Source of the DNA: Limnochordia bacterium
GTDB lineage: Bacteria; Bacillota; Limnochordia; DTU080
Reading direction: 5' to 3'
Assembly: GCA_050951545.1 (NCBI GenBank)
Contig: JBMNJG010000007.1
Coordinates: 416,001-480,000, forward strand
Length of the DNA: 64,000 nucleotides
In this document: positions 2,968 through 42,270 of the stretch, one piece after another
Layout of the letters: every line of letters starts with the position of its first letter
Position numbering within the stretch: the first letter of the stretch is position 1
Position numbers and translations under genes: made by a program
Notes under the pieces: generated by a model
The model's database searches: none
The model's input: only the letters and a program-made list of their open reading frames with translations
What the model was told of the DNA's origin: nothing

Positions 2968-4059
2968 TCAGCGCGGGTTGGCCAGAATGCGGGTGAGCAA
3001 GTCTGGTCGTAGGCTCTCTACCCCAGCGAAATCCATGTGGGGGGCGTAGATCGCTTCTAGCTCGTCATGCAGGCGCTTAGCCGTGGCCAGAGCGGCGATC
3101 GCTCGCTCTAGAATATGCGAGAAGAGCTGTTGGTTCTGCCCCAGTAGCTCCGCGTGGGCCTTGACTGTCGCTGGATGTCGACAAAGATCCATGTTGATCA
3201 CTGTGGCCTGTCTTGCTTCATAGAGATGCGGAGCAGTAGAGGTGATCACGGCGCAGCCAAGCGCAGGAATCAGAGCATGCTCGTATCGCTGGGGGTCTAG
3301 GCCACAATGGTACGCCTCGACCAGATAACCACGTTCCAGCGCGGCGTCGATCACCTTTTTGAGCAGGGTAGATTTGCCCGTGCCGGGCGAACCCGAGACC
3401 AGGATCTTGTGCGGCACTGCGTCCATCAGGCTGGGCAGGTGGTTATGGAATCCGGTAGGGGTAATGGCACTAGCGAAAAGGTGACGTATGCGCCCCACAT
3501 CGGCGGAGATGGGGCGGTGGCCGAAAAGACTGGCGATCGCCGAGGCCGCGTTCTCGTTAGCCCGGCCGTGGTTGAACTTCTCTTGGCTGATGTCGGCGGC
3601 GATCTCGTAGACATTTCTCGCAGCTGCCAGCAGGCGGTAGGCGCGCCAGAATGCTCGTGACGCGCCCGCTCTGGCGGCGAGGATCCGGTCCTTGTGTGGG
3701 CGGATACCGGCCTCATCACAGAACGGACCCAGGTTTACGATCTCGTCTACCACTCCTGGATGCACCGGGTCGATCAGATGTGGTGCGGTGCCATCAATAA
3801 GCGACACCTCCAGCTGTGGCATACGAATGGCGTCTAGGGAGGGAGCGTCGGAGGAACAGTGAAAGTACTCGACGTTGAACCCGCGACTTTGCATCTCTTG
3901 GCTTAGCCATTTCATAATAGTGGATTTCCCAGAGCCGGGTCCCCCCTTGATGATCATGATCCGCGTCGCGTCAATGGGGGCAATGTGGTGGAAAAAAGAG
4001 TGGAAGCCATTCGCAGTGTTGCCCCCAGCGAAGAGGTGCCTTTCGTTGCCTACGCTCAC
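2968..4059 (-). CDS. PRK06851-like ATPase with two P-loops
   Basis: FAGGNTANGFHS, KGGPGSGKST, HCSSD, DGTAPH, then a second module FASAITPTG...GSPGTGKST. Confidence 0.8.
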   Translation of the reverse strand: MSVGNERHLFAGGNTANGFHSFFHHIAPIDATRIMIIKGGPGSGKSTIMKWLSQEMQSRGFNVEYFHCSSDAPSLDAIRMPQLEVSLIDGTAPHLIDPVHPGVVDEIVNLGPFCDEAGIRPHKDRILAARAGASRAFWRAYRLLAAARNVYEIAADISQEKFNHGRANENAASAIASLFGHRPISADVGRIRHLFASAITPTGFHNHLPSLMDAVPHKILVSGSPGTGKSTLLKKVIDAALERGYLVEAYHCGLDPQRYEHALIPALGCAVITSTAPHLYEARQATVINMDLCRHPATVKAHAELLGQNQQLFSHILERAIAALATAKRLHDELEAIYAPHMDFAGVESLRPDLLTRILANPR

Positions 4060-4138
4060 AGGTTCTGCCTCCCGAGATGACGTTCATATCCAGCTTATAT
4101 GCTCTGCATTGTCAGTTTGTGCTGTATTGGTTTGGCTT

Positions 4139-4504
4139 TCATGACAGTGTCAGCCGGATCCAGGCCCAGACGAAATCGCGTCGCAAACGCCAGCCGCGCT
4201 CTGGGAGTCCAGCCACCACTTCAAGGGTGAACTTGTGGTAAAGGGTTTGGCACAGATTCACATCTCCCCACGTGGCGTCGAAAAGAATAGTCAGGGCAAG
4301 TCGGGCGGCGCCGGTCTCTGTCTGCCACTGGTCACGTATGGAGTCAGGCCGTGTCAGTTTGCGCAAGGGGTAGAGGGCACCCGACTCCTCGAGGTAGACC
4401 CGTGGTGTGCCGCCTTCATACCGCCCGACGTAGATGCGCTCCGAATCAACTAGGTACTCATCTGCCCGTTGCCAGCTTGGATATGCTTCAGGTTCGTAGG
4501 TCAT
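4139..4504 (-). CDS. DUF6166-like hypothetical protein
   Basis: GAARLALTIL...YHKFTLEVVAGLP..GW.L pattern. Confidence 0.55.
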   Translation of the reverse strand: MTYEPEAYPSWQRADEYLVDSERIYVGRYEGGTPRVYLEESGALYPLRKLTRPDSIRDQWQTETGAARLALTILFDATWGDVNLCQTLYHKFTLEVVAGLPERGWRLRRDFVWAWIRLTLS

Positions 4505-4725
4505 AGCGCGTGCACCTCGCTGCCCAGTGTTTTTTCACGGGCCTACTTTCAGCATTTGGGCCAATGCTTCCTACGAGTTATACAGCCTTCGTTATTTGAC
4601 CACGACCTTCGATACATTCTTCTGAAGGGGGGAGGTTTGGAGAATAGTTTATCATAGGGACCATGTCGGGTGACAGGGTGCGCAAGGAGGCGGATCATGC
4701 GAAGCGGAGCAGGGTGAGATGAGGG

Positions 4726-4756
4726 CCGCAGGGGGCGCCTTGGGCGCCCCCTGCGG
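4726..4756. terminator. GC-rich hairpin, probable terminator of the 4763-5941 gene
   Basis: CCGCAGGGGGCGCC-TTG-GGCGCCCCCTGCGG, a perfect 14-bp stem; no clear U-tract. Confidence 0.55.
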
Positions 4757-4762
4757 TGGGGG

Positions 4763-5941
4763 TTAGAAGGAGATAGCGAGCTCGATGCTGCGCAGGCCTG
4801 AAGGGATGTTCACCACGCCAGTAAAGTCCTGACCTGATGGCCCGGCAACTCGTACTTCATGCGAACCCGGGGTTAGGTAGTGCTTGAGTTTGGTTCTGCC
4901 TACATACGAGCCGTCAATATAGACTTGCCGCTCTGAAGGCCTAGATGTGATCTCCACAAGGACTTTCTGCTCTTTGACCACAATCCTCACCGTAGCTGAC
5001 GCTGTGGTACCGCGGTTGTCTTCAACCGTGAGGCGCGCAGTGTAGGTTCCTGGTCTGTTATACGTCCAGCGTGCTGATTCACCCGAAGCATCAGTACGAC
5101 CGTCGTCATCGAAGTCCCAGCGATACGAACGGATTGTGCCAGTAGGAGCGTAGGAACCTCTAGCCGAGAACGATATCGATGTGCCAAGTTCTACTTCTGT
5201 AGCACTGGCCTGGATGCGAGCCACAGGGGGCTGGAGACGCGGTATGAGCCACGAGTCTCGGCCAGCTTCCACATCATAGGCGCTCCAGGCGAAGGCTGAC
5301 CATGATCTCGTGTCGCGTACCCAATCCTGGAACTGCTTGAGCGTGGATGCGGCAGAACCCATTAGTGGGAAATCTCCGCCGCTACTGACAAGGCGCTCAA
5401 GGAATGAGATCCGCTGATTGGAGGCAATCAACAGAAGGTATTCGCGCCCAACAGGTCCTTCTACTCTAAACGTGTACCTGCCGCGGGGCAAGTTGTGAGT
5501 ACCGGCCTGGCTCATATAGGACTCGCGGTCCCAATTGTTTGGGAAAACCAGACGAATGTTGCCTCGCGTATCCACGTTGAGGATGTATGCATAGGCTGCA
5601 CGCGACAGGCGAAAAGAGATGCGGACATCACTGCCTATAGTGTAGGCTCTGCCGTCCGTCCATACGCTTACTGACTCAGGCGTAGGTGTGATTCCCTGAA
5701 CCACCATGCGTCGCGTGCTCGCATCGCCAGTGGAGGGGGCTGCCCCTTGCTGTTCGCCGAAGAGCTCTTGCATCTGTTTTACGAAATCGCTATCAGGTGC
5801 GCCTTGTGGCGCAGCTGTTTCGCTTTCCCATGGGGGAACCTCCGACTGGGCCATTGCTACGCTACCCAGGGTTAGCAGAATAAGCATCGCGAGCGTCAAG
5901 CTACCCGCAAACGTTCGCCGCGCTCTATTCATCAAAACCAT
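4763..5941 (-). CDS. secreted DUF4384 + PKD + PEGA domain protein
   Basis: Signal-peptide-like N-terminus; VWTD..Y.IG...AYAYILNVDT.G....FPN (DUF4384); SYRWDFDDDG...Y..PGTY.A.LTV.D (PKD); ITS.P....VYIDG.YVG.T (PEGA). Confidence 0.8.
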   Translation of the reverse strand: MVLMNRARRTFAGSLTLAMLILLTLGSVAMAQSEVPPWESETAAPQGAPDSDFVKQMQELFGEQQGAAPSTGDASTRRMVVQGITPTPESVSVWTDGRAYTIGSDVRISFRLSRAAYAYILNVDTRGNIRLVFPNNWDRESYMSQAGTHNLPRGRYTFRVEGPVGREYLLLIASNQRISFLERLVSSGGDFPLMGSAASTLKQFQDWVRDTRSWSAFAWSAYDVEAGRDSWLIPRLQPPVARIQASATEVELGTSISFSARGSYAPTGTIRSYRWDFDDDGRTDASGESARWTYNRPGTYTARLTVEDNRGTTASATVRIVVKEQKVLVEITSRPSERQVYIDGSYVGRTKLKHYLTPGSHEVRVAGPSGQDFTGVVNIPSGLRSIELAISF

Positions 5942-6147
5942 CTCCTCCGGACATCGAGTTTTGCCGTGTAGCCATGCCGTCGACGCGCCACGTGGGCTTC
6001 CTTGTCTTGGTGGACATCGGCATACACTGTAATGAGAGCTGCTGTGTCTCTCCCTGTTACGCTAACGTATGCCGAAAGCACTGAGAGGCCACCTTCAGGT
6101 AATGAAGATAGCCTCTCATCGTTAGTGTGCATTGTGGTGCTCGATCA

Positions 6148-7236
6148 CTATTTCGTCAGCCAGCGCTCCAAGAAGTCCAGTCCGGTGGTGGTCCGGATCT
6201 CATGACCACCTTCATGCAGATCGAGCTCTATTGCCTCTGGTATGCCGAGACGAGCATAGTGCTCTCGGGCTCTCTCGCAGGTCTCGACCACGAAAGGCCA
6301 CCAGGCTATGCCGTCCGCCTTTCCTGTTTGGATCTGCAGCGGGCGAGGGCAGATCAAAGAGGCGAGATCCTCGTCATGGAACTCTGCTAGCCAGCGCGGA
6401 ATAAAGACGTACTCCTCTTGCACCGAAAGAAAGCAACTGTAGCGGGGATCGTCAAAAACCATTTTCTTGACCCGATCGTTGAACCAGGCACAGCAGACGG
6501 CAGCTTTGATCCGTGGCTCGAGGGGGACGGTAAACAGGGTGTACGCACCGCCCAAGCTGATGCCCCACATACCCACGCGCTCGGCATCGATCTCTGGCAT
6601 CGCTAGTACAGTGTCGAGTAGGCAGCGAATCTTGTGAATCTCCACGCCCCATAGGGTAATGCCTAGCATCTTGCAGATGCGCTCTAGGCGGCTGCGCGGC
6701 GGCGCTCCCATGACATTCTTGGGGGCCAAGACCGCAAAGCCACGACGGACGAGCTCGCGACCATACTGCTGATAAGCACCGCCGCTGCCCGTGAGACCAA
6801 AGACCGTCTCCGGCGAGCTGCCAATGCCGTGTTGCGCTATCACCAGGGGCAGCTGGCCCGAACGTTTCTTGGGCAAGGCTACAACCCCGTGGGCCCGCAG
6901 ACTGCCAGCGACAGGCACTATCAGCCAGCGCGCCACCAGCTCGTCGTCTTCCATGAAGGGCTCCCAAACCACCTCGCCTTCGGGCTCAGGCAGGTCCAAG
7001 GTGGACAGATCGCCGACTGCTGCAAGCCAGCGGGCCCTGTTGGGTTCCACTGAATGCAGATAGGCCTGCCTCGAGCTGTAGTCACGGTTCCACAGTTTCT
7101 GGCGCGAGTGTGTCGAATGCTCACTTAGTGCGCGCAGGAAATCCTCAGTCTCCGTCTTTACCAGCCACTGCTTGTCGTTTACGACGCGGTCGATCACTTG
7201 AGGTGTGACGTGCAATGCGTTTTCGTATGATGGCAT
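6148..7236 (-). CDS. alpha/beta hydrolase (dienelactone hydrolase/acetylxylan esterase-like)
   Basis: PLVIAQHG, GISLGG nucleophile elbow, LICPRPL, HEGGH; start placed at ATG after GGAGG. Confidence 0.8.
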   Translation of the reverse strand: MPSYENALHVTPQVIDRVVNDKQWLVKTETEDFLRALSEHSTHSRQKLWNRDYSSRQAYLHSVEPNRARWLAAVGDLSTLDLPEPEGEVVWEPFMEDDELVARWLIVPVAGSLRAHGVVALPKKRSGQLPLVIAQHGIGSSPETVFGLTGSGGAYQQYGRELVRRGFAVLAPKNVMGAPPRSRLERICKMLGITLWGVEIHKIRCLLDTVLAMPEIDAERVGMWGISLGGAYTLFTVPLEPRIKAAVCCAWFNDRVKKMVFDDPRYSCFLSVQEEYVFIPRWLAEFHDEDLASLICPRPLQIQTGKADGIAWWPFVVETCERAREHYARLGIPEAIELDLHEGGHEIRTTTGLDFLERWLTK

Positions 7237-7339
7237 TACAAAACCTCCCTGGAGAGTGATGTCATGCTGTGCGGGCACGGGCTGCCACCTTAGGATTTTG
7301 GCGCCCATGCTATGTGTTGCTGAACGGTCTCCTTCTTGC

Positions 7340-10300
7340 CTAAGGAGCCGATACCTGGAAACAGGTCACCCCACCAGCGTCATCAGCGATGGTGACCGTA
7401 TCTGCATGGCCAGCAAAACTGGATAGGGGCATGCCCTTGAGTACACAACGGGCAAGAAGGCTGCCGTCAACGCCTACTTCATAGACCGATCGATCGGTAC
7501 AGGCGACGAGTAGTCGTTGGCCAAGGGCGTGCATGGCTCTGATCTCGTGCGGTAGCTGAACGGCCCAAAGTTGCGCTCCTGAGAAGTCAAAGGCCGTGAG
7601 CCAAGCAGATGGTGAGCCGACGATGATCTCTTGCACGCCATCTGCATTGACATCCAGCGTGGCTAGAGCACTGATCCAGTCGCCGAGAAGCCGTAGCCAC
7701 TTACGGTCGCCCGTCACGGCATCGTGCAAGGCCACTTCGTTGTAGGCATTTTTGCGACCGATGATGGCTTGCTGACAACCATCGCTTGATAGGTCAACGA
7801 TCTCTAAGCCCGGCACGGCTGTCATATCCCAGCTGCCGCGCTCGTTGTCGAAGGCGTTGCGGCTAAGCACGTTGCCCTTCGCGTCGAGCCGCCATACCGT
7901 ACTACCCGAAGAGGAGTAGCCGTTGCTTACGAGTATGGTCTTGCTACCGTCCGGCATCTTCATGGCTCGAAGCCGGTCAGGGATTCCCCACTCGATCTGA
8001 CGCAGCCACCTTGGCTGTCCATCGGCCCCGATTAGTTCGACACAGCCTCCACCTGTACCACAGATGATCTCGCTTTGACCGTCGTTGTCGACATCCTCAG
8101 TAAGGATCGCTTGCACTTTGGCTTTCAGCTCAGTGGTCCACCACGAGTAGATGGTCTCCGGCATGCGACAGCGATGCTGCCAGATAAGCTTACCGTTGTC
8201 AGGGTGTAAGGCGTACAGATGCTCATCATCACAGCCCACCAGAAGCTTACCAGGCATGTGCGAGAGGGCGCGTACAGCGGCTGGTGCTTGAATCCGCCAA
8301 CGCATCTGGCCCTGAGCATCCAGACACAAGACACCGCCGCAAGCAAGTCCAATGACCGTCTCTGTGCAACCGTCAGCGTCGATATCTGCGGCGTAGGTGC
8401 TGAGTGGCACTCCATCGATCGAAGACGACCAAGCAGGCATCAGGGCAGCGAGTGCAGATGATGTGTCCGGGGTGGAGCGAGGCACGGGTCGCTGAGCATC
8501 CTGGCAGATCTGCTGCCTGAGCAGCTCCATGTCTCGGGGAAGAACGGCTGTACTGGCGAGCTCGTGGTGGCCCGCACTGAGTCGGTGACAGGAATGATCG
8601 ATCTGTACCTCGACTGGCTCCATCGCCTCAACAGCCACTTCACCGGTGGACGGGATCAGCTCCACATGGCAAGGCACAGAGGTCGTGATGACTTTGCTGG
8701 TCCCTATGGCTATCTCACGGCAGTTGACCACCGCTATCGAATCGGCACCCGCACAGAAAGCACTGCCCATGAGTCGCAGGTTCGCCCGGCGGAAGCCCTC
8801 CAAACCGATGAGTCCCATATAGGCCAGTTCGTCTCCGCATAGGACGCACAGGGTGTCGCCAATCTTGATGACCTCGTAGTGAGCGGTTGTGTCACTTCCT
8901 TCGACATAGAGTAGGTTAGTAAAGACCTGTACGTCTCCTGCCTGCATCTTTCTGTCGACGATCTGGCGCACACGGTTGATGCCAGGGCGGCTACAGTAGC
9001 TTCGCCAGGGCATCGTGTCAGGCGGGCCAAACAGGCCCACCGTCTGTTCGCTGTAGCGCAAGGGGAAACCCTCGGCATTCTTGATATGAAAGACATCACG
9101 CGGGGCATCTGGCTGAGCTTGCTCCCAGACTGTGGAGGAGAAGTGACTACCCGTGATCTGCGGTTCGCCGATGGTTCGCCATTGACATTCCAATGAGTAA
9201 TGACCGTTCTCGGTGATTCTCACAGCATCGAGGACCACAAACCAGGCGCCCTTGCGCCAGAAGATGTGGCGATCCCACGATGAGAAGGCGTGCTGGTTGG
9301 CTCTGCTATGACTGTAACCGAAGCCACTCAGATTGGCCACGGCCTCCAGCGAAGCTACGCGGCCCAAGGGGGCACCCAGTCCCTCCTTGCATACAGTGAC
9401 CACGTTGTGGCAGACGGGGTTTTCACCACCGATATCACTCACTAAGAAGATGCGATCGTTCTGGGTGAAATGAGCAATGGAGTTGACGTCGGGCCACGGT
9501 TTGCTGTCGGGCCCGCCGTGGAGCCCGTCCAGAAGCAGATACTGATCGTGATGCTCAAAGCCAGAGCGCATAGTCAACTTGTCGAACGACTTCTCGAAAG
9601 GTACCGCGGAGCCGCGTTGGCGGTGCTCCCACGAAGCGAGTGGCAGGTAGTAGACGCCGACCATCTTTTCCATCGATGATTCGGGTCTGAGACCTGTAGC
9701 CCAGGCTTGGCCAGCGGTGAACTCTTCGGTGGTGTCGGTGAAGCCCGCCTTTTTCTCCGCTCTCTCCCGCAGATGGGTGGTGGCCAGTAGCTGACCGTTG
9801 CCCAGCAGAGCCGCGCATTTCTGCAGTGTATAGGTGGGATAGCTGGTGTACTCGCTTTGTCCGGTGTTGGGCATGTAGCCAGTGTTGTCACAGTGCATGA
9901 GGCAGAGTTCAGCGTAGTGCTCCAGAGCCCCGCTGGTGATCAGGCGTTCGTCGCCCAACAGCAGAGCGGGGATAAGCACGCTCTCCAAGTAGCTGTAGAT
10001 GCCTCGTCCACCTAGATCGCTGTCGCCCTTGCACATTGTCATCTGTCTATCAAAATAGGCGCGTACCGCGTCTAAGTTCCGCTTCCATTCGTCAGACGGC
10101 CAGTACTTGCCAAAGTAACGGCTGTCAGTCAGGGTGCAGTTGGCCTGCATGGCCAGGTGGCGGTCGTGCAAACCTTTGGCTGTACAGTGTAGGAGACGTT
10201 CGATACCCGCACTGCCATCACGTCCGCGAGCGTGACGCAAGAGACGTTCCGTAATCTGATAGCGCTCTTCGAAAGAGAAAAAGGGGCTTTCTTCGATGAG

Positions 10301-15086: not shown

Positions 15087-15177
15087 GGCTCTATACTGAC
15101 CTCCTTACGGGATGTCTTTGGTGGGTATTGATTCCATACAGACGAACGATATTCCTGTAGGGATCTGAAACGTTCGG

Positions 15178-15540
15178 TCACGTAGGTGCAAGTCCCTGTG
15201 GACGTGAGGGCTGCGTCGGTGCTTGAGCTTTCAGCCCATCGTCTGCTTGCGGCAGGACCTGCTGTTCATATAGCTTGGAGTACAGACCGCCTCCTTTGAG
15301 CAGTTGCCTATGCGTGGCTGATTCGACTATTCGGCCGTTGTCGACTACGAGAATAAGATCAGCCGCCAGAATGGTGGACAGACGATGGGCGATTACCAGG
15401 CTAGTTCGCTCAATCAGCAGGGGAGCCAGGGCCCGCTGCACGATGTGTTCGGCTTGCGAGTCTAGAGATGAGGTGGCCTCGTCAAGGATAAAGATGCGGG
15501 GATTGTTCAGAATCACCCGGGCGATAGCCACACGCTGTTT
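15178..15540 (-). pseudogene. 3' part of an ABC transporter ATPase, separated from its 5' part by element copy 1
   Basis: KQRVAIARVILNNPRIFILDEATSSLD...IAHRLST; joins in frame to ...KLSGGE ending at 19472. Confidence 0.9.
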
Positions 15541-17957
15541 TCGATTGGATCCGCTCTCCAGTGCGCGATCACGGCGGGCTCGCTCGGATCCCTCTGCGGA
15601 CCAAAAAGGTGGACGAATACCATGCACCATGCACACCCTCGCGAGACTCGCTCGGTAGTCGGACAGATGCACCCGGATTGGTACGTGAGTCGGGACCAAG
15701 AATCCGACCGTGATGGCAAAAGAGCCGCCTCATTAACCCCCGGGGCCAGTATGCGTGGTAAAAGCGCAGCGATGCGGCCTTCGCGGAGCCCTTTTTGCTC
15801 ATTTTGACCGGCCGAAGGGCTCATTTTCGCGCCCAAGAGCACGCTTTCCCGCCTTGGTGGCCCTTCTGGGGCTACCGGGCAGCACATAACCGAACGGTAG
15901 TGACTGCCTTTTGCCACTCAGTCGATGGGGTAAGCTCTCCAGTGCGCGATCACAGCGGGCTCGCTTGGGTCCCTCTGCGGACCAACCCTTCAGTGTTAAC
16001 CCGGTCGGTGCATTTCGAAAAGGTGGACGAACACCATGCACCATGCACACCCTCGCGAGACTCGCTCGGTAGTCGGACAGATGCACCCGCATTGGCACGC
16101 GAGTCGGGGCCAAGAATCCGACCGTGATGGCAAAAGAGCCGCCCCATTTACCCCCGGGCCCAGTATGTACGTGGTAAAAGCGCAGCGATGCGGCCTTCGC
16201 GGAGCCCTTTTTGCTCATTTTGACCGCCCGAAGGGCTTATTTCCCCGCCAAAAGAGCCGCGCTTTCCCGCCTTGGTGGCGCTTCTGGGGCTGCCGGGCGG
16301 CACATAACCCGAACGGTAGTCGACAGCCTTTTCCCACTCAGCCGATGGGGTCAGCTCCCCAGTGCGCGATCACGGCGGGCTCACTCGGGTCCTCTGCGGA
16401 CCGACCCTTCGGTGTATTTCGAAAAAGGTGGACAGATGCAATGGACGCGCTCGCGAAACAGGCCCTGCAGTCAGACACCAGCCGGATTGGTATGGAGGCC
16501 GGGCTAAGGATGTGGCCGCGATGGCAAGAGAGCCGCCCCATTAACCCCCGAGGCCAGCGTGCGTGGTAAAAGCGCAGCGATGCGGCCTTCGCGGAGCCCT
16601 TTTGGCTGGTTTGGACAGCCTGAAGGGTGCTTTTCGCCGCCTGAGAGCGCGCTTTCCCGCCCTGGTTCCGCTTCTGGAGCCTCCGGGCGGTACATAACCG
16701 GATGGTGACGATACCTTTTTCCCACTCAGTCGATGGGGTCAGCTCCCCAGTGCGGAATCACGGCGGGCTCACTCGGGTCCCTCTGCGGACCCACCTTCAC
16801 TGTTATCCCGGTCGGTGCATTTGGAAGAGAATGGACGGATCAATGGACACGCTCGCGCGACTCGCTCGGTAGTCGAACGGGATTCACCCGCATTGGCATG
16901 CGAGTCGGGACCAAGATCCGACGGCGATGGCAAAAGAGCCGCCTCATTAACCCCCGAGGCCAATGTACGTGGTAAAAGTGCAGCGATGCGGCCTTCGCGG
17001 AGCCCTTTTTGCCGATTTTGACCGCCCGAAGGGCTCATTTCCCCCCAAAAGAGCACGCTTTCTCGCCTTGGTGGCCCTTCTGGGGCTTCCGGACGGTACA
17101 TAACCCGACGGTGGTGATACCTTTTTCCCACTCAGTCGATGGAGTCAGCTCCCCAGTGCGCGATCACGGCGGGCTCACTCGGGTCCCTCTGCGGACCGAC
17201 CCTTCGGTGTTAACCCAGTCGGTGCATTTGGAAAAGATGGACGCATGGACACGCTTGCGAGACTCGCTCGCTCGCCGAACGGGATTTACCCGCATTGGCA
17301 TGCGAGTAGGGGCCAAGAATCCGACCGCCATGGCAAAAGAGCCGCCTCATTAACCCCCGGGGCCAGTATGCGTGGTAAAAGCGCAGCGATGCGGCCTTCG
17401 CGGTGCCCTTTTTGCTCATTTTGATTGCCCGAAGGGCTTATTTCCCCGCCTAAGGCCACGCTTTCTCGCCTTGGTGGCCCCTCTGGGGCTACCGGGCGGT
17501 ACATAACCCGACAGTGTCGATAGCGTTTTCCCACTCAGTCGATGGGGTCAGCTCCCCAGTGCGGAATCACGGCGGGCTCACTCGGGTCCCTCTCCGAACC
17601 GCCCCTTCGGTGTTGCCCTGGTCGGTGTATTTCGAAAAAGGTGGACGAACACCATGCACCATGCACACCCTCGCGAGACTCGCTCGGTAGTCGGACAGAT
17701 GCACCCGCATTGGCATGCGAGTCGGGGCCAAGGATCCGACCGTGATGGCAAAAGAGCCGCCTCATTAACCCCCGGGCCCAATGTACGTGGTAAAAGTGCA
17801 GCGATGCGGCCTTCGCGGAGCCCTTTTGGCTCATTTTGATCGCCCGAAGGGCTCATTTCCCCGCAAAGAGCACGCTTTCCGGCCTTGATGCCTCTTCCGG
17901 AGCTGCCGGACGGTACATAACCGAACAGTGTCGATCGCCTTTTCCCACTCAAACGAT
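15541..17957. repeat. tandem array of six ~380-420 bp imperfect units
   Basis: Anchor CCACTCA-GYCGAT recurs at ~15541 (partial), 15921, 16341, 16729, 17135, 17538 and 17952; shared blocks GGTAAAAGYGCAGCGATGCGGCCTTCGCGG and ACATAACC. Confidence 0.95.
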
Positions 17958-18081
17958 GATCCGAGGGTGAAATGCAATCGACTCCCGGTGGCCTCCGAGT
18001 TTTAGCGGGCAATGCGCGCGTTTTCAGCGAAAGCTGTGGAAGGATTCTGGCCTCACGTACCGAACATCGCATCGAGACAAT

Positions 18082-18095
18082 CGAACACATGATCG
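18082..18095 (+). promoter_or_regulatory. putative LexA (Cheo/SOS) box upstream of the nuclease gene
   Basis: CGAAC-ACAT-GATCG, one mismatch to the Firmicutes consensus CGAACRNRYGTTCG; weaker box 21 bp upstream; conserved in copy 2. Confidence 0.4.
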
Positions 18096-18113
18096 TTGTG
18101 TGAGGTGAGGCCC

Positions 18114-19175
18114 TTGTACTCTCTCTATGTAGATGAGGTGAACGTGCCGCTCTCACTGCTACTGACTCGCGAGCTAAAAGCCAGCGAGAAGATCGTTTGG
18201 ATGGCCTTAACGATGGATGATCAGCTGGAGGAAAGCTTCCTTTTCTCGCCCAGCCGCCTGGGGCGGCGCACGGGTATGTCCCGGCCTACCGTTCGCAGGG
18301 CGACAGCCAAGTTAACCACCGAGGGCTGGTTTGCTCCACCGGCTAGGCGGGGACCTAGCCAGACCGCGGCACAGAAGTCATCCCCGGACAAGGTCTCCGT
18401 GCCTGTCGAGTTAGTCATGGCTACTGAAATCCATGCACAGGCCAAATTGGTTTATGCCCTACTGCTGTCCAAACCTACGGACCCACCTCGCAAAAGGCAG
18501 TTCACATACGCTGAGTTAGCTGGCCGGATGAGTCTGAGCCCCCAAACCATCAAACACGCAGCTCGTCAGTTGGCCAAGCATGGTTGGCTGGAGATGGAGC
18601 AGGCGCACAAGCGGGCACCGATTCGCTTCACTCTCCACAACCCGGTTGATAAGCGAAATGTAAAAGAAATACTAGACGTGCAGGATGAGCTCCAGCGCGC
18701 TACGCACCTCGGAGAGGCTCTCATGCAGGCTATCTTCTTGGCGCTTGTCGATTGCCTTGACTTCGACGACGGAATGCGCCCAGGTTTCATGAGGAACCCA
18801 GCAACTGGCAAGCGTCTGGAGGTCGATCTCTTCTATTACTTGCACAATACGGCCATGGAGTTCAATGGGGCGCAACACTACCGCGTCACGGAGCGGAATT
18901 CGGCTGAGCAGGTCCATAAGCAGCAATGCCGTGACCAGACCAAACAGCAGATCTGCGCCAAGAAGAAGATCAAGCTGATCGTGATTCAGGCTCACGAGCT
19001 GTCCTGCAAGATCATCAAGCGCAAGATTCGCAGGCGGCTGCCATTCCGGCGCGGTCAGGACTTCAACCGGAAGCTCATCAACTATCTCGAGTGTAGATGC
19101 GGTGAGTACCAGCAAAGAATAGATGAACGTGGCTGGGGAACCGCCAGTGAATCTGAGAGAAAGCAAGACGAGTAG
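18114..19175 (+). CDS. tandem winged-HTH (HTH_36-like) + Vsr/DUF559-like PD-(D/E)xK nuclease
   Basis: Two VP..L.....L....K.V(W/Y)..L...L....(G/S).S..T......L...GW repeats; C-terminal RPGFMRNPATGKRLEVDLFY...AMEFNGAQHY...RDQTK...C....IKLIVI; TTG start after GAGGTGA (ORF track start 18096). Confidence 0.8.
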   Translation: MYSLYVDEVNVPLSLLLTRELKASEKIVWMALTMDDQLEESFLFSPSRLGRRTGMSRPTVRRATAKLTTEGWFAPPARRGPSQTAAQKSSPDKVSVPVELVMATEIHAQAKLVYALLLSKPTDPPRKRQFTYAELAGRMSLSPQTIKHAARQLAKHGWLEMEQAHKRAPIRFTLHNPVDKRNVKEILDVQDELQRATHLGEALMQAIFLALVDCLDFDDGMRPGFMRNPATGKRLEVDLFYYLHNTAMEFNGAQHYRVTERNSAEQVHKQQCRDQTKQQICAKKKIKLIVIQAHELSCKIIKRKIRRRLPFRRGQDFNRKLINYLECRCGEYQQRIDERGWGTASESERKQDE

Positions 19176-19255
19176 TCACCCTGGGTCGCCTCGTCCGTTT
19201 CATTAGGGCTCGCATCAGCCGTGCAGCCAATGGTAGTGCGCGTCCACCCGCCGCT

Positions 19256-19432
19256 GGCTACCCCATTGGCAGCGGATGCGTAGAAAGCGCCTGTAAGCAG
19301 GTTGTTGTTAGGCGCCACAAGCAATCTGGAATGCGTTGGAGCCAACTTAGGGCACAGCAGATGCTAAACGTTGCAGCGTACTCCCACGGTGAACAGTGGG
19401 ACGATTTCTGGGAGAGGCGGGAGGCAGCATGA
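19256..19432 (+). pseudogene. C-terminal remnant of an ISKra4/ISLre2-type (p-MULT) transposase
   Basis: Manual translation GYPIGSGCVESACKQVVVRRHKQSGMRWS...WDDFW. Confidence 0.85.
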
Positions 19433-19471
19433 TTAGGAACGGGTGTTCGCCGCGATTTCGCGTGTGCACCC

Positions 19472-19966
19472 TTCGCCGCCGGACAGCTTGACGTCTCGCT
19501 CTCCTACAACAGTGTCATAGCCTTTGGGAAGGCTCATGATCATGTCGTGAATGAAGGCCGCCTTAGCAGCTTCGATCATCTCATCCTCACTAGCTTCAGG
19601 TTGGGCGTAGAGCAGGTTGTCGCGCACGCAGGCATTGAACATGAACACATCCTGAGTCACGATTCCTATTTGCCGGCGTAACGAGGCGAGGGAGACTTGG
19701 CGGACATGACAGCCGTCGATCGTGATGACGCCGTCTTGGATCTCGTACAGCCGGGGTACTAAGTTGGTGATGGTGGTTTTTCCTGCTCCTGAGGGGCCCA
19801 CAAGAGCGACCAGTTGCCCAGTCGGCCGTAAAGGCGCGAAGCAAATGATTGCACCGCGATCACCGTCCCCAAAGAGATCTCACCTTTTGGCGCACAAAGA
19901 TCTTGCTCAGAATGACGCCGCTAATGGGCCCCATCCCATGCCACCACTGCGTCCGCCTAAGCCCAT
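19472..19966 (-). pseudogene. 5' part of the ABC transporter, with large internal deletions
   Basis: GAGGAGG + ATG (MGLGGRSGGMGWGP), a TM6 scrap GEISLGTVIAVQSFASRLYG, then GQLVALVGPSGAGKTT...KLSGGE. Confidence 0.85.
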
Positions 19967-20254
19967 ACCCCTTCCTCCTCTGCAGGTCAGTTCACAACAC
20001 GTAGTTCTGCATCTGCACACCTCGACCTTCTAGCTGCGGATGCAACAAGGTACAATAGGCTATAGGAAGGCCTTTGTTTACGGGAGCCGTAAAGATAGTG
20101 TGCAAAATGCGTTCACGGAGATAGTAAACCACGTGTGGACGTATTGGCTAAACTGTGCAATACTGGGAACATATCCTAGGCTGCAGCATCATGGACGCTC
20201 GACTGGGTCTACGAGCTGAAGAAGGCTGTTCACATGGATGGGAGGCGACAGGCA

Positions 20255-21529
20255 ATGACGAGTATGCGTAGGGTCTCAGGTGTTGTTCTATTGACGGTCT
20301 TGGCTATGGCTTCATTGACGAGTGCTGCTTCGGTAAAGGTAGTGCATGTGATGGCAGATCATGGTGAGCCGTTCTTGCAGTTCCTTCAAGAGCGGGCGCA
20401 GGCTTTCCAAGTCAAGTACCCGGGAGTCGAGGTCGAGGTATTCGCCCAGCAGGCCGATTACACGACCAAAGCTCAGCTTATGATCGCTGCTGGTACGCAG
20501 GTGGACATTCTTGACTCGACACATAGTTTCATGACATTCTCGTTTAACGACGCCCTAGCTGATCTGATGCCCTATGTCAAGGCTGAGAAGATCAACCTCG
20601 ATCGTGATATGCTACCCTTTGCTCAGCTGGTTCTTATGAAGGACGGCAAGCTGTACGGAGTCCCCAGTCAGCTGTACGGTGTCGTGGCCTCCTACAATCG
20701 CACCTATTTCGACGAGATCGGCCTTACTCCGCTGTCCAAACTGGGCGATGCTTGGACGTGGGACTGGTTGCGCAACAATGCGGGGCGCCTTCTCAAGGAT
20801 ATTGATGCTGACGGCGTGCTCGAGACCGGAGCGGTCACGTTCAGCGCTTCGTTCATCAACGTGTCGCCGGCCATCCATCAGGCAGGCGGTAGCATGTTTG
20901 ACAGTTACATTCACCCGCGCTACGTGAATATGACGAACCCAGCGGTGCGCACTGGCCTGGGCTTCTATGCCGAACTGAAGCAGCGCGGCTGGGTCGGCTC
21001 ACAGTCATACTTCACTAAACGCGGCAACGCCATCAACCTGTATGCTACTGGAGCACACAGCTCCAATTTCGTGGTAGACGGTGATGTCTTCGAAGCGGCA
21101 GTCCATCCGAAGGGTCCAGTGCGCCGAGGTGGACAGACCATGTTTGGGCCTTTCCATGTCCCGGCGGCTTCAAAGCAGCAGGAGTGGGCTTTTCGCTGGA
21201 TTGCCTTTCTGGGTATGAGCGAGGAATCACAAGTGAAGATGATGGATGCGACGGGTCGAATACCGGCGCACCCACCGACCCTGCGCAAAATGGCGAACTT
21301 CATGGGTCGCACTGAGCCGCACAAACGCGACTACCTGTTGCAGGTGACGGAGGCCTCAATGCACGCAGATATGTACCCCCATACGCTCACCCAAGCAGAA
21401 GGGGCGATGCGGGCGATATTCGAGCCAGCCTTCAATGAGGTACTTAATGGAAAGCTCGCTCTGGAGAGTTTCCTGGAGAGAATGCAGTCTCAGCTACAGA
21501 TCGAGCTCGATAAGCTGTGGGCGAAATAA
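20255..21529 (+). CDS. sugar ABC transporter substrate-binding protein (orphan)
   Basis: Signal peptide; F..KYPGVEVE, LADLMPY, GKLYGVP, YNRTYF, WTWD. Confidence 0.87.
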   Translation: MTSMRRVSGVVLLTVLAMASLTSAASVKVVHVMADHGEPFLQFLQERAQAFQVKYPGVEVEVFAQQADYTTKAQLMIAAGTQVDILDSTHSFMTFSFNDALADLMPYVKAEKINLDRDMLPFAQLVLMKDGKLYGVPSQLYGVVASYNRTYFDEIGLTPLSKLGDAWTWDWLRNNAGRLLKDIDADGVLETGAVTFSASFINVSPAIHQAGGSMFDSYIHPRYVNMTNPAVRTGLGFYAELKQRGWVGSQSYFTKRGNAINLYATGAHSSNFVVDGDVFEAAVHPKGPVRRGGQTMFGPFHVPAASKQQEWAFRWIAFLGMSEESQVKMMDATGRIPAHPPTLRKMANFMGRTEPHKRDYLLQVTEASMHADMYPHTLTQAEGAMRAIFEPAFNEVLNGKLALESFLERMQSQLQIELDKLWAK

Positions 21530-38861: not shown

Positions 38862-38938
38862 CGTTGCGACCATACGGGGGGCCGCGCAAAGAACTGCGGT
38901 AATCTCCCTGCGTCCGCTTGGGTTGGTGGTAGGAACCT

Positions 38939-40307
38939 AGCGATGCGGTCTTCGCGAAGCCCTTCTGCTCATTTTGATCGCCCGAAGGGCCTATTTCCCC
39001 GCCTAAGGGCACGCTTTCCCGCCTTGATTTCGGTTCTGGGGCTACCGGGCAGCACATAACCGAACGGTAGTGACTGCCTTTTTCCACTCAGCCGATTGGG
39101 GTCAGCTCCCCAGTGCGCGATCACAGCGGGCTCGCTCGGGTCCCTCTGCGAACCGACCCTTCAGTGTTAACCCGGTCGGTGTATTTCGAGAAAGGTGGAC
39201 AGATGCAATGGACGCGCTCGGGAAACAGGCTCTGCAGTCAGACACCAGCCGGATTGGTATGTGAGGCCGGGCTAAGGATGTGGCCGCGATGGCAAGAGAG
39301 CCGCCCCATCAACCCCCGGGGCCAATGTACGTGGTAAAAGTGCAGCGATGCGGTCTTCGCGAAGCCCTTTTTGCTCATTTTGACCGCCTGAAGGGCTCTT
39401 TTCCCCGCAAGAGCACGCTTTCCCGCCTTGATTTCGCTTCTGGGGCTACCGGGCAGCACATAACCCGACGGTAGTGACGGCCTTTTCCCACTCAGCCGAT
39501 TGGATCAGCTCTCCAGTGCGCGATCACAGCGGGCTCGCTCGGGTCCCTCTGCGGACCGACCCTTCGGTGTTGCCCCGGTCGGTGCATTCGAACAGAATGG
39601 ACGGACACCATGCACACGCTTGCGAGACTGGCTCGGCAGTCGGACACCAGCCGGATTGGTATGTGAGGCCCGGCTAAGGATGTGGCCGCGATGGCAAGAG
39701 AGCCGCCCTATTTACCCCCGGAGCAGGTGTGGGTGGTAAAAGTGCAGCGATGCGGCCTTCGCGAAGCCCTTTTGGCTGGTCTGGACGGCCTGAAGGGCCC
39801 TTTTCCCCCCAAAAGAGCGCGCTTTCCCGCCCTGGTGGCCCCTCTGGAGCTACCGCGCAGCACATAACCCGACGCAATTGATAGCCTTTTCCCACTCAGT
39901 CGATGGGGTCAGCTCCCCAGTGCGCGATCACAGCTGGCTCGCTCGGGTCCCTCTGCGAACCGACCCTTCAGTGTTAACCCGGTCGGTGCATTTGGAAGAG
40001 AATGGACGGATCAATGGACACGCTCGCGAGACTGGCTCGGTAGTCAGACACCAGCCGGATTGGCATGCGAGTCGGGGCCAAGAATCCGACCGCGATGGCA
40101 AGAGAGCCCCTCATTAACCCCCGGGCCCAATGTACGTGGTAAAAGTGCAGCGATGCGGCCTTCGCGGAGCCCTTTTGGCTCATTTTGATCGCCCGAAGGG
40201 CTCATTTCCCCGCCCAAGGGCACGCTTTCCGGCCTTGATGCCTCTTCCGGAGCTGCCGGGCGGTACATAACCGAACAGTGGCGATACCTTTTTCCCACTC
40301 AGCCGAT
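38939..40307. repeat. tandem array of ~3.4 units of ~404 bp, same family as 15541-17957
   Basis: Anchors at 39091, 39495, 39899 and 40302 (spacing 404, 404, 403). Confidence 0.95.
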
Positions 40308-40464
40308 GATCCGAGGGTGAAATGCTAATCGACTCCCGGTGGCCACCGGGTCTTAGCTGGCAATGCGCGCGTTTTCGGCGAAAGCTGTGGAAGGATTCTG
40401 GTCTCACGTACCGAACATCCCATCGAGACAATCGAACACATGATCGTTGTGTGAGGTGAGGCCC

Positions 40465-41526
40465 TTGTACTCTCTCTATGTAGATGAGGTGAACGTGCCG
40501 CTCTCACTGCTACTGACTCGCGAGCTAAAGGCCAGCGAGAAGATCGTTTGGATGGCCTTAACGATGGATGATCAGCTGGAGGAAAGCTTCCTTTTCTCGC
40601 CCAGCCGCCTGGGGCGGCGCACGGGTATGTCCCGGCCTACCGTTCGCAGGGCGACAGCCAAGTTAACCACCGAGGGCTGGTTTGCTCCACCGGCTAGGCG
40701 GGGTCCTAGCCAGACCGCGGCACAGAAGCCATCCCCGGATAGGGTCTCCGTGCCTGTGGAGCTAGTCATGGCTACTGAAATCCATGCACAGGCCAAATTG
40801 GTTTATGCCCTACTGCTGTCCAAACCTACGGATCCACCTCGCAAAAGGCAGTTCACATACGCTGAGTTAGCCGGCCGGATGAGTCTGAGCCCCCAAACCA
40901 TCAAACACGCGGCTCGTCAGTTGGCCAAGCATGGTTGGCTGGAGATGGAGCAGGCGCACAAGCGGGCACCGATTCGCTTCACTCTCCACAACCCGGTTGA
41001 TAAGCGAAATGTAAAAGAAATACTAGACGTGCAGGATGAGCTCCACCGCGCTACGCACCTCGGAGAGGCTCTCATGCAGGCTATCTTCTTGGCGCTTGTC
41101 GATTGCCTTGACTTCGACGACGGAATGCGCCCAGGTTTCATGAGGAACCCAGCAACTGGCAAGCGTCTGGAGGTCGATCTCTTCTATTACTTGCACAATA
41201 CGGCCATGGAGTTCAATGGGGCGCAACACTACCGCGTCACGGAGCGGAATTCGGCTGAGCAGGTCCATAAGCAGCAATGCCGTGACCAGACCAAACAGCA
41301 GATCTGCGCTAAGAAGAAGATCAAGCTGATCGTGATTCAGACTCACGAGCTGTCCTGCAAGATCATCAAGCGCAAGATTCACAGGCGGCTGCCATTCCGG
41401 CGCGGTCAGGACTTCAACCGGAAGCTCATCAACTATCTCGAGTGTAGATGCGGTGAGTACCAGCAAAGAATAGATGAACGTGGCTGGGGAACCGCCAGCC
41501 AATCTGAGAGAAAGCAAGACGAGTAA
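40465..41526 (+). CDS. tandem winged-HTH + Vsr/DUF559-like nuclease (second copy)
   Basis: Only 6 aa differences from 18114-19175 (by-eye comparison). Confidence 0.8.
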   Translation: MYSLYVDEVNVPLSLLLTRELKASEKIVWMALTMDDQLEESFLFSPSRLGRRTGMSRPTVRRATAKLTTEGWFAPPARRGPSQTAAQKPSPDRVSVPVELVMATEIHAQAKLVYALLLSKPTDPPRKRQFTYAELAGRMSLSPQTIKHAARQLAKHGWLEMEQAHKRAPIRFTLHNPVDKRNVKEILDVQDELHRATHLGEALMQAIFLALVDCLDFDDGMRPGFMRNPATGKRLEVDLFYYLHNTAMEFNGAQHYRVTERNSAEQVHKQQCRDQTKQQICAKKKIKLIVIQTHELSCKIIKRKIHRRLPFRRGQDFNRKLINYLECRCGEYQQRIDERGWGTASQSERKQDE

Positions 41527-41713
41527 TCACCCTGGGTCACCTTGTCCGTTTCGTCAGGGCTCGCATCAGCCGTGCAGCCAATGTTGATGCGCGTCCACCC
41601 GCCGCTGGCGATCAGGGCAACACGTCTGCACTGATCTTCACTCAGACGGCACCGTGACATAACCAGCAGTTGACCGCCATGTCTCGTGTGCACTCCCAAT
41701 CCCCCTATCGACG

Positions 41714-42150
41714 GGGTCCACGCAAAAAATAGCGGAAAGTAAGTGCCGAACGTAGATTCCCAACAAGGAGTTTATGGGGCAAATGGAAAAAGAGATCTCT
41801 GACAACCATCCGCGGGCTCACGTCCGCAGAAGGAGAGATCTCTTTAACTACCAGTATAGTATATCCGGCCGAAACCATCAGCACTCAAGAGGCACCTTCG
41901 CAGGAGGAGATGAACCCTTTATCCGAGGCTGGAGGCCGCTGGCTACCCCATTGGCAGCGGATGCGTAGAAAGCGCCTGTAAGCAGGTTGTTGTTAGGCGC
42001 CACGAGCAATCGCGTTGGAGCCAACTTGGGGCACAGCAGATGCTAAACGTTGCAGCATACTCCCACGGTGAACAGTGGGACGATTTCTGGGAGAGGCTGG
42101 AGGCCGCATGATTAGGAACGGGTGTTCGCCGCGATTTCACGTGTGCACCC
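41714..42150 (+). mobile_element. 437-bp internally deleted ISKra4/ISLre2-type IS (MITE-like)
   Basis: IRL GGGTCCACGCAAAAAATAGCGG; AGGAGGAG + ATG AAC joined directly to C-terminal YPRLEAAGYPIGSGCVESACKQ; IRR rc GGGTGCACACGTGAAATCGCGG (16/22 to IRL). Confidence 0.8.
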
Positions 42151-42270
42151 ACCATACGGAGTTTCAGTGGAGGACGATCCGCGCCAGGCACTCAGCTCCA
42201 TGTGTTTGCAGGCATCTGGGTCGCGGCGACTAAGATGTGCATGGACCTGGTGACATGGAGGCTGGATCAG

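Follow-up and report, generated by a model that had tools for sequence, protein, structure and literature searches.

Two loci in one 64-kb stretch of a Limnochordia genome each place a long non-coding tandem array beside a single nuclease gene, and they raise the question of what kind of genetic unit this is and what the array does for the protein. The stretch, hereafter the window, is C7:416001-480000 (contig JBMNJG010000007.1) of a 3.64-Mb, 16-contig genome with a completeness of 93.9%, and the loci lie at window positions 15541-19471 (copy A) and 38878-42150 (copy B). A preliminary description had treated them as an undescribed system, present twice, in which the array is the functional partner of the protein. 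We find instead 15 open reading frame (ORF)-bearing copies in the genome, and the two loci belong to a multi-copy transposable element whose family is undescribed. That this element is an autonomous transposon, with the winged-helix nuclease as its mobility protein and the array as an iteron-like platform, is a proposition we regard as evenly balanced.

Results

Copies, ends and target duplications

BLAST and tblastn searches of the whole genome assign 15 ORF-bearing copies to subfamily 1, 13 of them intact and two broken, and in every one of the 15 the ORF is preceded by 2-6 unit starts of ~405 bp. More divergent loci form subfamily 2 (four loci, including two in a duplicated segment, with ~54% protein identity), subfamily 3a (seven loci, ~48%, one frameshifted) and subfamily 3b (two loci, ~47%). 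The resulting 28 ORF-bearing loci (15 + 4 + 9) are distributed over 12 of the 16 contigs with flanks that differ at every copy and, with their repeats, the four subfamilies cover ~69 kb, or 1.9% of the genome.

Complete copies are bounded by imperfect 22-bp inverted repeats, GGGGCCACGC... and ...GTGTGCACCC, and complete subfamily 1 copies start GGGGCCACGCAAAAAACTGCGG and end ...CGTGTGCACCC. The left (L-type) and right (R-type) ends match each other as inverted repeats at 13-15 of 22 positions, and subfamilies 2 and 3b show the same end types. Of the seven copies that possess both L- and R-type ends, four, copy B included, lie at unrelated sites between exact 9-bp target duplications. Terminal inverted repeats (TIRs), duplications of fixed length and many unrelated sites are the features of a TIR transposon or insertion sequence (IS); both the TIRs and the duplications had been missed in the preliminary description. 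Homing-endonuclease spread at one conserved site does not match this picture, in which the flanks vary per copy and inverted repeats and 9-bp duplications are present. For subfamily 3a we found no consistent end or duplication: the left homology edge falls inside a unit-like stretch and the right edge in the array. The left-edge stretch (for example at C16:78535-79563 and its flanks) has the same orientation as the downstream 94-bp array, and the termini of this subfamily therefore look like direct, not inverted, repeats.

Three further arrangements accompany these copies. A junction of an R-type end, an 18-bp spacer and an L-type end is kept in three copies (window 41674-41735, the C7:660068 region and C16:2058-2119), which suggests two elements fused end to end and later moved as one. 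Insertions that we take to be IS21-like, from IstA/IstB-like ORFs read in translation, lie in or beside arrays at C10:60281-63856, C14:342-2151 and C14:6610-8669, where ORF-less arrays are left. Finally, the 27-kb contig C8 (487-5851) and part of contig C9 (locus f2_C9, 4053-9164) have more than 5 kb in common, including a subfamily 2 element with identical flanks; this may be a segmental duplication or an assembly duplicate.

Architecture of the two copies in the window

Tandem Repeats Finder (TRF) detects exactly two large-period arrays in the window, one in copy A (15628-17958; period 403, 5.7 copies, 81% matches) and one in copy B (38939-40307; period 404, 3.4 copies, 84% matches). An anchor motif spaces the unit starts at 416, 392, 406, 403 and 415 bp in copy A and at 405, 402 and 403 bp in copy B, near the unit lengths first reported, which confirms a large-unit array at both loci. 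Self-comparison likewise bears out the borders, with homology between the copies ending exactly at 15541/19471 and 38878/42150, and both loci show the described order of array, ~138-bp non-repeated leader and 359-codon ORF.

Copy B lies between two 9-bp target duplications, ACCATACGG at 38869-38877 and ACCATACGG at 42151-42159. Its left terminal inverted repeat (L end, 38878-38899, + strand) is followed on the same strand by the tandem array, with four unit starts and 3.4 units of ~404 bp (38926-40308), the leader (40309-40446) and the gene (40447-41526), whose product is the same protein as that of copy A with six residue differences. Downstream are an internal R-type end (R', 41674-41695, − strand), the 18-bp spacer (41696-41713) and an ORF-less 437-bp module (41714-42150, +) that extends from an internal L-type end (L', 41714-41735) to the outer right terminal repeat (42129-42150).

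Copy A, also on the + strand, lacks the left terminus that copy B has. Its array (15541-17958), delimited by TRF, the anchor motif and self-comparison, contains six unit starts of ~403-bp units and is truncated on the left inside a unit. The leader (17959-18095; 88% mean identity among copies) connects it to the gene for the double winged-helix, Vsr-type nuclease (18096-19175; 359 codons from TTG, likely start 18114), and a 3' segment (19176-19471) carries the right terminal repeat at 19450-19471. A stretch matching copy B 41610-41934 is also missing from copy A, by deletion between 8-bp CCGCTGGC repeats.

Read from the sequence, copy A cleanly splits an ABC ATPase gene on the − strand between the motifs LSGGE and KQRVAIAR: the C-terminal half, from KQRVAIAR, occupies 15178-15540 and the N-terminal half, to LSGGE, 19472-19801. 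In both available genomes of the same genus, the entire ~15170-20330 stretch, split gene and copy A together, is absent from the syntenic site, where the neighbouring genes are ~190-210 bp apart; the split gene could itself be imported DNA. Copy A thus affords no clean before/after comparison, and no empty site for copy B was found in these two genomes, which are ~76% identical. Elsewhere in the window, an 824-bp stretch (56841-57664) that occurs three times in the genome lies inside a 707-aa ORF on the − strand (56071-58194), presumably a Tn5/IS4-type transposase from its translation, read by eye.

The tandem arrays

The 44 full units have a mean identity of 85.8%, and nearly all pairs differ by more than 6%. 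Variation within the unit is diffuse, with one well-conserved ~55-bp block (consensus columns ~208-260) and no spacer-like part. The preliminary description had noted that the unit lengths break any reading frame, and the unit consensus is indeed non-coding, with 3-12 stops per three units in every one of the six frames; ungapped unit blocks are too short for a coding-periodicity test, and hidden coding in the units was dropped as a candidate on the stops.

A long non-coding array adjoining a nuclease gene could yield transcripts, either repeated structured RNAs or guide RNAs, that work together with the nuclease in a CRISPR- or TIGR-like logic, and one contig from a public RNA library does touch the array of copy A (17597-17659). 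We consider this very improbable. The repeat-plus-spacer build of CRISPR and TIGR is not seen, the whole 405-bp unit being homologous between units and variation extending over all of it. The units have no Rfam match at E values up to 1, and consensus folds of the 44 units contain 5 of 76 and 10 of 80 compensatory pairs, compared with 5-11 and 6-9 when partners are slid by 1-3 columns. Promoter-like and terminator-like sites stand at shuffle level, and array and gene do not keep one relative orientation across subfamilies. Structured RNA from the units was dropped as a candidate for both strands, and the earlier suggestion that the arrays are a source of structured RNAs gained no support.

All four subfamilies pair the gene with repeats. 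The ~405-bp units of subfamily 1 lie upstream of the gene; those of subfamily 2 (~262-288 bp) lie downstream in all four loci; and those of subfamily 3a (~94 bp, 2.1-4.6 copies) lie downstream in seven of seven loci, with one unit-like stretch upstream. In subfamily 3b, one copy has three repeats spaced 441-645 bp, beginning ~100 bp upstream of the gene, and the other has two repeat copies ~1.3 kb apart; TRF missed these repeats (74-94%). An upstream position, part of the order first proposed, is therefore not general: two subfamilies have the array downstream. The array of subfamilies 1 and 2 stays towards the L-type end while gene orientation flips; array placement therefore follows the architecture of the element, not expression of the gene. 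Unit size over the subfamilies, at ~94, 262-288, 405 and 440-650 bp, lies outside the ~17-22 bp of iterons. The array of this element family is obligatory and fast-evolving; its co-occurrence with the gene and the initiator-type winged helices of the protein suggest a partnership of the two.

Several candidate signals within the units were followed. The ORF-less module of copy B contains 15 matches to conserved unit 10-mers, where shuffled sequences give 3.2 on average and 13 at most; confined to 2-3 sites, the matches are a lead only. 'Boxes' common to the units of three subfamilies were rejected, the comparisons of subfamily 3 with 1 and of 3 with 2 not being significant in the same orientation, and the boxes were not found in the arrays of the 78 foreign loci described below, except for a periodic match in locus L096. 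The idea that each unit contains a copy of the left terminus was also rejected: with 48-bp L, R and L' sequences compared with the unit consensus (+ strand), the score is reached by 26, 22 and 294 of 300 shuffles.

A double winged helix joined to a Vsr-type nuclease

The element encodes one gene only. Counted from the first TTG, the ORFs at 18096-19175 and 40447-41526 are both 359 codons long; a GAGGTGAGG motif resembling a ribosome-binding site, along with a database entry, favours a start at 18114 (353 aa). Between the two ORFs, 17 of 1080 bases and six residues differ, in agreement with the ~10 synonymous and six non-synonymous changes counted earlier by eye.

In Pfam searches, the N-terminal half contains HTH_36 at residues 111-165 (36.6 bits, cut-off 25), as the preliminary description had assigned it, and a second winged helix around residues 51-79. 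DnaD_N (21.2 versus 27 bits) and AbiEi_4 (17.2 versus 25 bits) score weakly, below their cut-offs; there is no Rep_3 match, and Phage_rep_O is matched by 2 of 58 relatives. The winged helices match the PHROG families 'replication initiation O-like' and 'replication initiation protein' and DnaD-like families (7.5e-8, 3e-7), and two tandem winged-helix domains are a feature of the initiator group. In structural comparison, the double winged helix aligns to the Pi and RepE initiators, and AspA centromere binders are among the weak fold matches. The winged helices are, on these matches, predicted to be of the replication-initiator kind (lambda O / DnaD / Pi-like).

Residues 190-359 have no Pfam match. 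Against PHROG, the C terminus matches families labelled 'homing endonuclease' and 'intron encoded nuclease' and an HNH-labelled family at 1e-9 to 1e-11 (phrog_559, 1.2e-11; phrog_9084, 1e-9), and DUF2726 is matched by 8 of 58 relatives (best 4.2e-5). We modelled this domain alone from a 16-row alignment (predicted local distance difference test score 89) and compared the model with 48,161 chains, which identified a Vsr-type restriction-endonuclease-like fold; Foldseek alone gave no match for the domain at E ≤0.001, and whole-protein Foldseek and PDB sequence searches returned winged-helix regulators only. At least 90% of the 58 relatives retain D244, E255, H261, D280 and K283. On the modelled fold, the predicted nuclease is of the Vsr / EDxHD-homing-endonuclease type, with acidic, His and Lys residues conserved, and the 'Vsr-like' label holds at fold level. 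Steczkiewicz et al. (PMC3424549) group Vsr together with DUF559 and DUF2726 within the PD-(D/E)XK superfamily.

The family itself is real yet without a name. Exhaustive HMMER searching collects 1597 representatives at E ≤0.001 and 149 at ≤1e-30, a word-indexed search gives nine clusters of relatives, and neighbours in the ESM Atlas, mostly from Bacillota, are labelled 'hypothetical'. Pfam and NCBIfam detect no DDE, HUH, serine, tyrosine, DEDD or Cas1 transposase domain in the protein, in the 58 relatives or in eight longer relatives (409-544 aa), and the latter have no additional Pfam domain. A defence system was considered and dropped, with a PADLOC search giving helix-turn-helix (HTH)-level matches only and no accepted stretch.

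The likeness to initiators raises the alternative of a replicon- or partition-like module on an integrating element, in which the protein would be a Rep-type initiator or a centromere binder and the array its iterons or centromere. Besides the Pi and RepE alignments, the PHROG and Pfam matches to lambda O-like and DnaD-like domains and the weak AspA matches, such a module would fit the direct repeats found on both sides of the gene, an arrangement also known from the F and P1 replicons. The origin, centromere or addiction-like roles first suggested for the array fall under this alternative, which we consider improbable. None of 72,556 plasmid records contains a homologue, and six phage records match the nuclease domain only. 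Units of 94-650 bp are not the 17-22 bp of iterons, no helicase loader, partition ATPase or other partner recurs near the 78 foreign loci, and a cell would hardly tolerate 28 chromosomal origins. This reading would also leave unexplained the inverted repeats and 9-bp duplications that mark the loci as a transposable element.

Selection and age of the copies

Across the 13 intact copies, mean identity is 98.3% in the ORF, 88.3% in the leader, 89.0% in the last partial unit and 91.8% in the 3' stretch. Synonymous differences per site (pS) amount to 0.049 and non-synonymous differences (pN) to 0.0085, for a pN/pS of 0.17, and codon position 3 accounts for 44 of 69 variable ORF sites. The gene has therefore been kept functional in many copies, which are not brand new, and the purifying selection suspected from the two window copies is borne out. 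With a maximum identity of 99.4% between copies, the sequences give no sign of current mobility of the element.

Relatives in other genomes

The protein occurs in 11 of 31 related genomes, this one counted, with up to 18 and 13 matches per genome: in three of three other genera of the family, six of six genomes of the same order and 1 of 19 from the rest of the class. A species-level collection yields 78 foreign loci that encode relatives, mostly from Symbiobacteriaceae, Limnochordia, Thermaerobacter and other Bacillota metagenome-assembled genomes (MAGs). These foreign copies are old, with 70-80% similarity confined to the ORF. No neighbour gene recurs among the 78 loci (ABC transporters, the commonest, adjoin 5), nor does any transposase.

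Arrays of period ≥40 lie within 500 bp of the gene in 12 of the 78 loci (density ratio 5.5 compared with the rest, binomial p 3e-5) and within 1.5 kb in 16, and are 3.3-5.5 times denser near the gene than farther off; these statistics include related loci that are not independent of one another, and MAGs built from short reads collapse or break at such repeats, as at locus L106, where the sequence stops within an array. Co-occurrence of arrays with homologues had been proposed as a check on the system, and it is seen as an enrichment near the gene, with a detectable array at 12-16 of the 78 loci. The idea of the array as putative functional partner draws on its presence in all four subfamilies, the foreign enrichment and the initiator-type winged helices. 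Among 20 further loci from four related genomes, three have 168-285-bp units upstream. At the orthologous loci L045 (7236-7685) and L047 (6981-7462), from two Fermentithermobacillaceae MAGs, a degenerate 168-bp array lies just downstream of the homologue, and the gene-array pair at this site has outlasted speciation.

Public sequencing runs contain the stretch as well. At least half of the sampled words are present in 14 DNA runs, from digester, bioreactor, sludge and landfill metagenomes, and part of them in six RNA-library runs. Word depth in one DNA run is 121-464 over the unit and 37-48 over the ORF, an excess that a reiterated unit would give, and the sample of this run may be the one from which the genome came. 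In three metatranscriptome runs, contigs match the ORF in part (18233-19187) and the array hardly at all; DNA carry-over is possible, and gaps in the contig coverage carry no evidential weight. Contigs of two RNA runs from two studies join 18520 to 19434, skipping 913 bases with CG between, with sides of 28 and 38 letters; this joint, not seen in the DNA run compared, may be a deleted variant or an artefact.

What moves the element

In the autonomous model, the protein would be the element's own mobility protein. Its winged helices would bind reiterated sites in the array, which would act close to the L-type end as a platform for loading or titration, much as iterons do, and would also bind the ends of the element. 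The nuclease domain would cut, with target cuts staggered 9 bp apart, and joining would be finished by host repair, which we invoke because a hydrolytic nuclease has no known strand-transfer activity. Unequal exchange would change the length of the array, giving 2-6 units per copy.

The remaining multi-copy elements of the genome, whose family names we assume from reading their translations, are IS1634-like (6-bp duplications), ISLre2-like (9-bp duplications), IS4/IS701-like and IS21 elements and the 824-bp IS4-like piece. None of the other multi-copy ISs shares the element's ends, and a noisy genome scan revealed these ends on no element with a different gene; autonomy is therefore the simplest reading. 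Alternatively, the element could be a non-autonomous cassette moved in trans by a transposase encoded elsewhere, perhaps as a single copy or in the missing ~6% of the genome. The nuclease would then be a passenger, either a regulator or a selfish gene of homing-endonuclease type, and the arrays would be a by-product or sites that the nuclease itself binds. Each end type, L or R, is near-identical in subfamilies 1 and 2 though the proteins are only 54% identical, as one outside enzyme predicts; the nuclease is of a hydrolytic type; an ORF-less 437-bp module with both end types exists; and the genome is 93.9% complete. In addition, a 1695-bp IS, presumably ISLre2-like, also produces exact 9-bp duplications, at C2:219040-220734, C9:24088-25782 and C16:149380-151074. 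Its ends are different, however, and its tip matches the element at 10 of 22 positions, judged near chance in a hand alignment. The ends are shared by none of the four other multi-copy ISs, and a genome-wide scan for the end pattern, noisy at 72 matches versus ~45 expected, revealed no further element with another gene. A gene carried merely as a passenger should hardly remain intact in 13 of 15 copies at a pN/pS of 0.17, or be the sole gene of four diverged subfamilies, and no transposase recurs beside the homologues in the 78 foreign loci. Movement in trans seems to us rather unlikely.

A number of observations weigh against the autonomous model. We know of no nuclease, Vsr-type or otherwise hydrolytic, that by itself performs inverted-repeat transposition with target duplication, the protein has no predicted joining activity, and N257 apparently occupies the place of the second residue (D) of EDxHD, on an alignment reading only. 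Three of the seven copies with both ends have no exact duplication, and copy A is inserted in the ABC gene without a target duplication and begins at an internal array position. Around 107 foreign and related loci, inverted repeats and 9-bp duplications were at noise level, in a search whose positive control recovered 2 of 4 known cases at the threshold applied. The protein is found in neither of the two genomes of the same genus, an array is detectable in only 12-16 of the 78 foreign loci, and no two copies are identical (maximum 99.4%). Finally, units are unlike between subfamilies, save for one short stretch between subfamilies 2 and 1 (1 of 200 shuffles). The termini show no significant resemblance to the units (a score equalled by 26 and 22 of 300 shuffles) and share no conserved 10-mers with them, with none in the L terminus or leader; there is therefore no sequence sign that one protein binds both.

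A more specific proposal is that the element represents a novel class of prokaryotic transposon, in which a transposase made of an initiator-type double winged helix and a Vsr/EDxHD nuclease would load on a long iteron-like array beside one end, outside the DDE, HUH, serine, tyrosine, DEDD and Cas1 classes. We put this forward tentatively, as plausible and somewhat short of probable.

Discussion

No system of such build was known to the preliminary description, and our limited search of open-access literature (titles and abstract starts) likewise found none, nor any described bacterial element that combines a nuclease gene with a long array. The nearest relatives by parts differ from the element in other respects. 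I-Bth0305I, an EDxHD homing endonuclease, resides in a group I intron, recognizes a single gene target, which it cuts with 2-base overhangs, and is spread through homologous repair. The element described here has inverted-repeat ends, 9-bp duplications at unrelated sites, winged helices rather than NUMOD motifs, and an array. TnsA of Tn7 cuts 5' ends only and needs TnsB and TnsC, and Tn7 duplications are 5 bp; our element has a single gene, the opposite domain order and 9-bp duplications. Neither Tn7-type partner, a TnsB-type DDE transposase or a TnsC ATPase, is present in the one-gene element.

Pi, RepE and lambda O recognize iterons of 17-22 bp on plasmids and phages, whereas the present element has 94-650-bp units, is chromosomal and transposon-bounded, has a fused nuclease and is without a homologue in the 72,556 plasmid records. 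Eukaryotic TIR transposons of the En/Spm-CACTA and Mutator types possess terminal inverted repeats, target duplications and reiterated subterminal transposase-binding sites, and in having inverted-repeat termini, target duplications and repeats inside the ends they resemble our element. They differ in their DDE transposases and in short motifs at both ends; ours is bacterial, with another protein class and long units towards one end.

In protein build there is a likeness to DUF559 and DUF2726 proteins with an N-terminal HTH (for example AbiEi_4-DUF559), which share the combination of HTH and Vsr-like nuclease. We know of no DUF559 or DUF2726 protein reported to be the only gene in an element with inverted repeats and target duplications, or to occur with arrays. 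Like the protein here, these are multi-copy and often near mobile DNA, and in Fusobacteria DUF2726 is noted among the mobile elements (PMC3424549).

Should the protein move the element, it would be a transposase of a new class that combines a homing-endonuclease nuclease with initiator winged helices, both known so far in other roles only. As a compact, ~350-residue sequence-reading nuclease with a modular DNA-binding half, it would be of interest for mobile DNA and genome engineering. If the element were instead moved in trans, the strict pairing of a nuclease gene with a fast-evolving array in four subfamilies would still need explaining. At ~2% of a Limnochordia-related digester genome, the element matters in either case for the assembly and annotation of such MAGs. 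If true, the autonomous model would link homing endonucleases, iteron-binding initiators and cut-and-paste transposons, and would provide a bacterial transposon that uses long reiterated binding platforms, otherwise a feature of eukaryotic elements and plasmid iterons.

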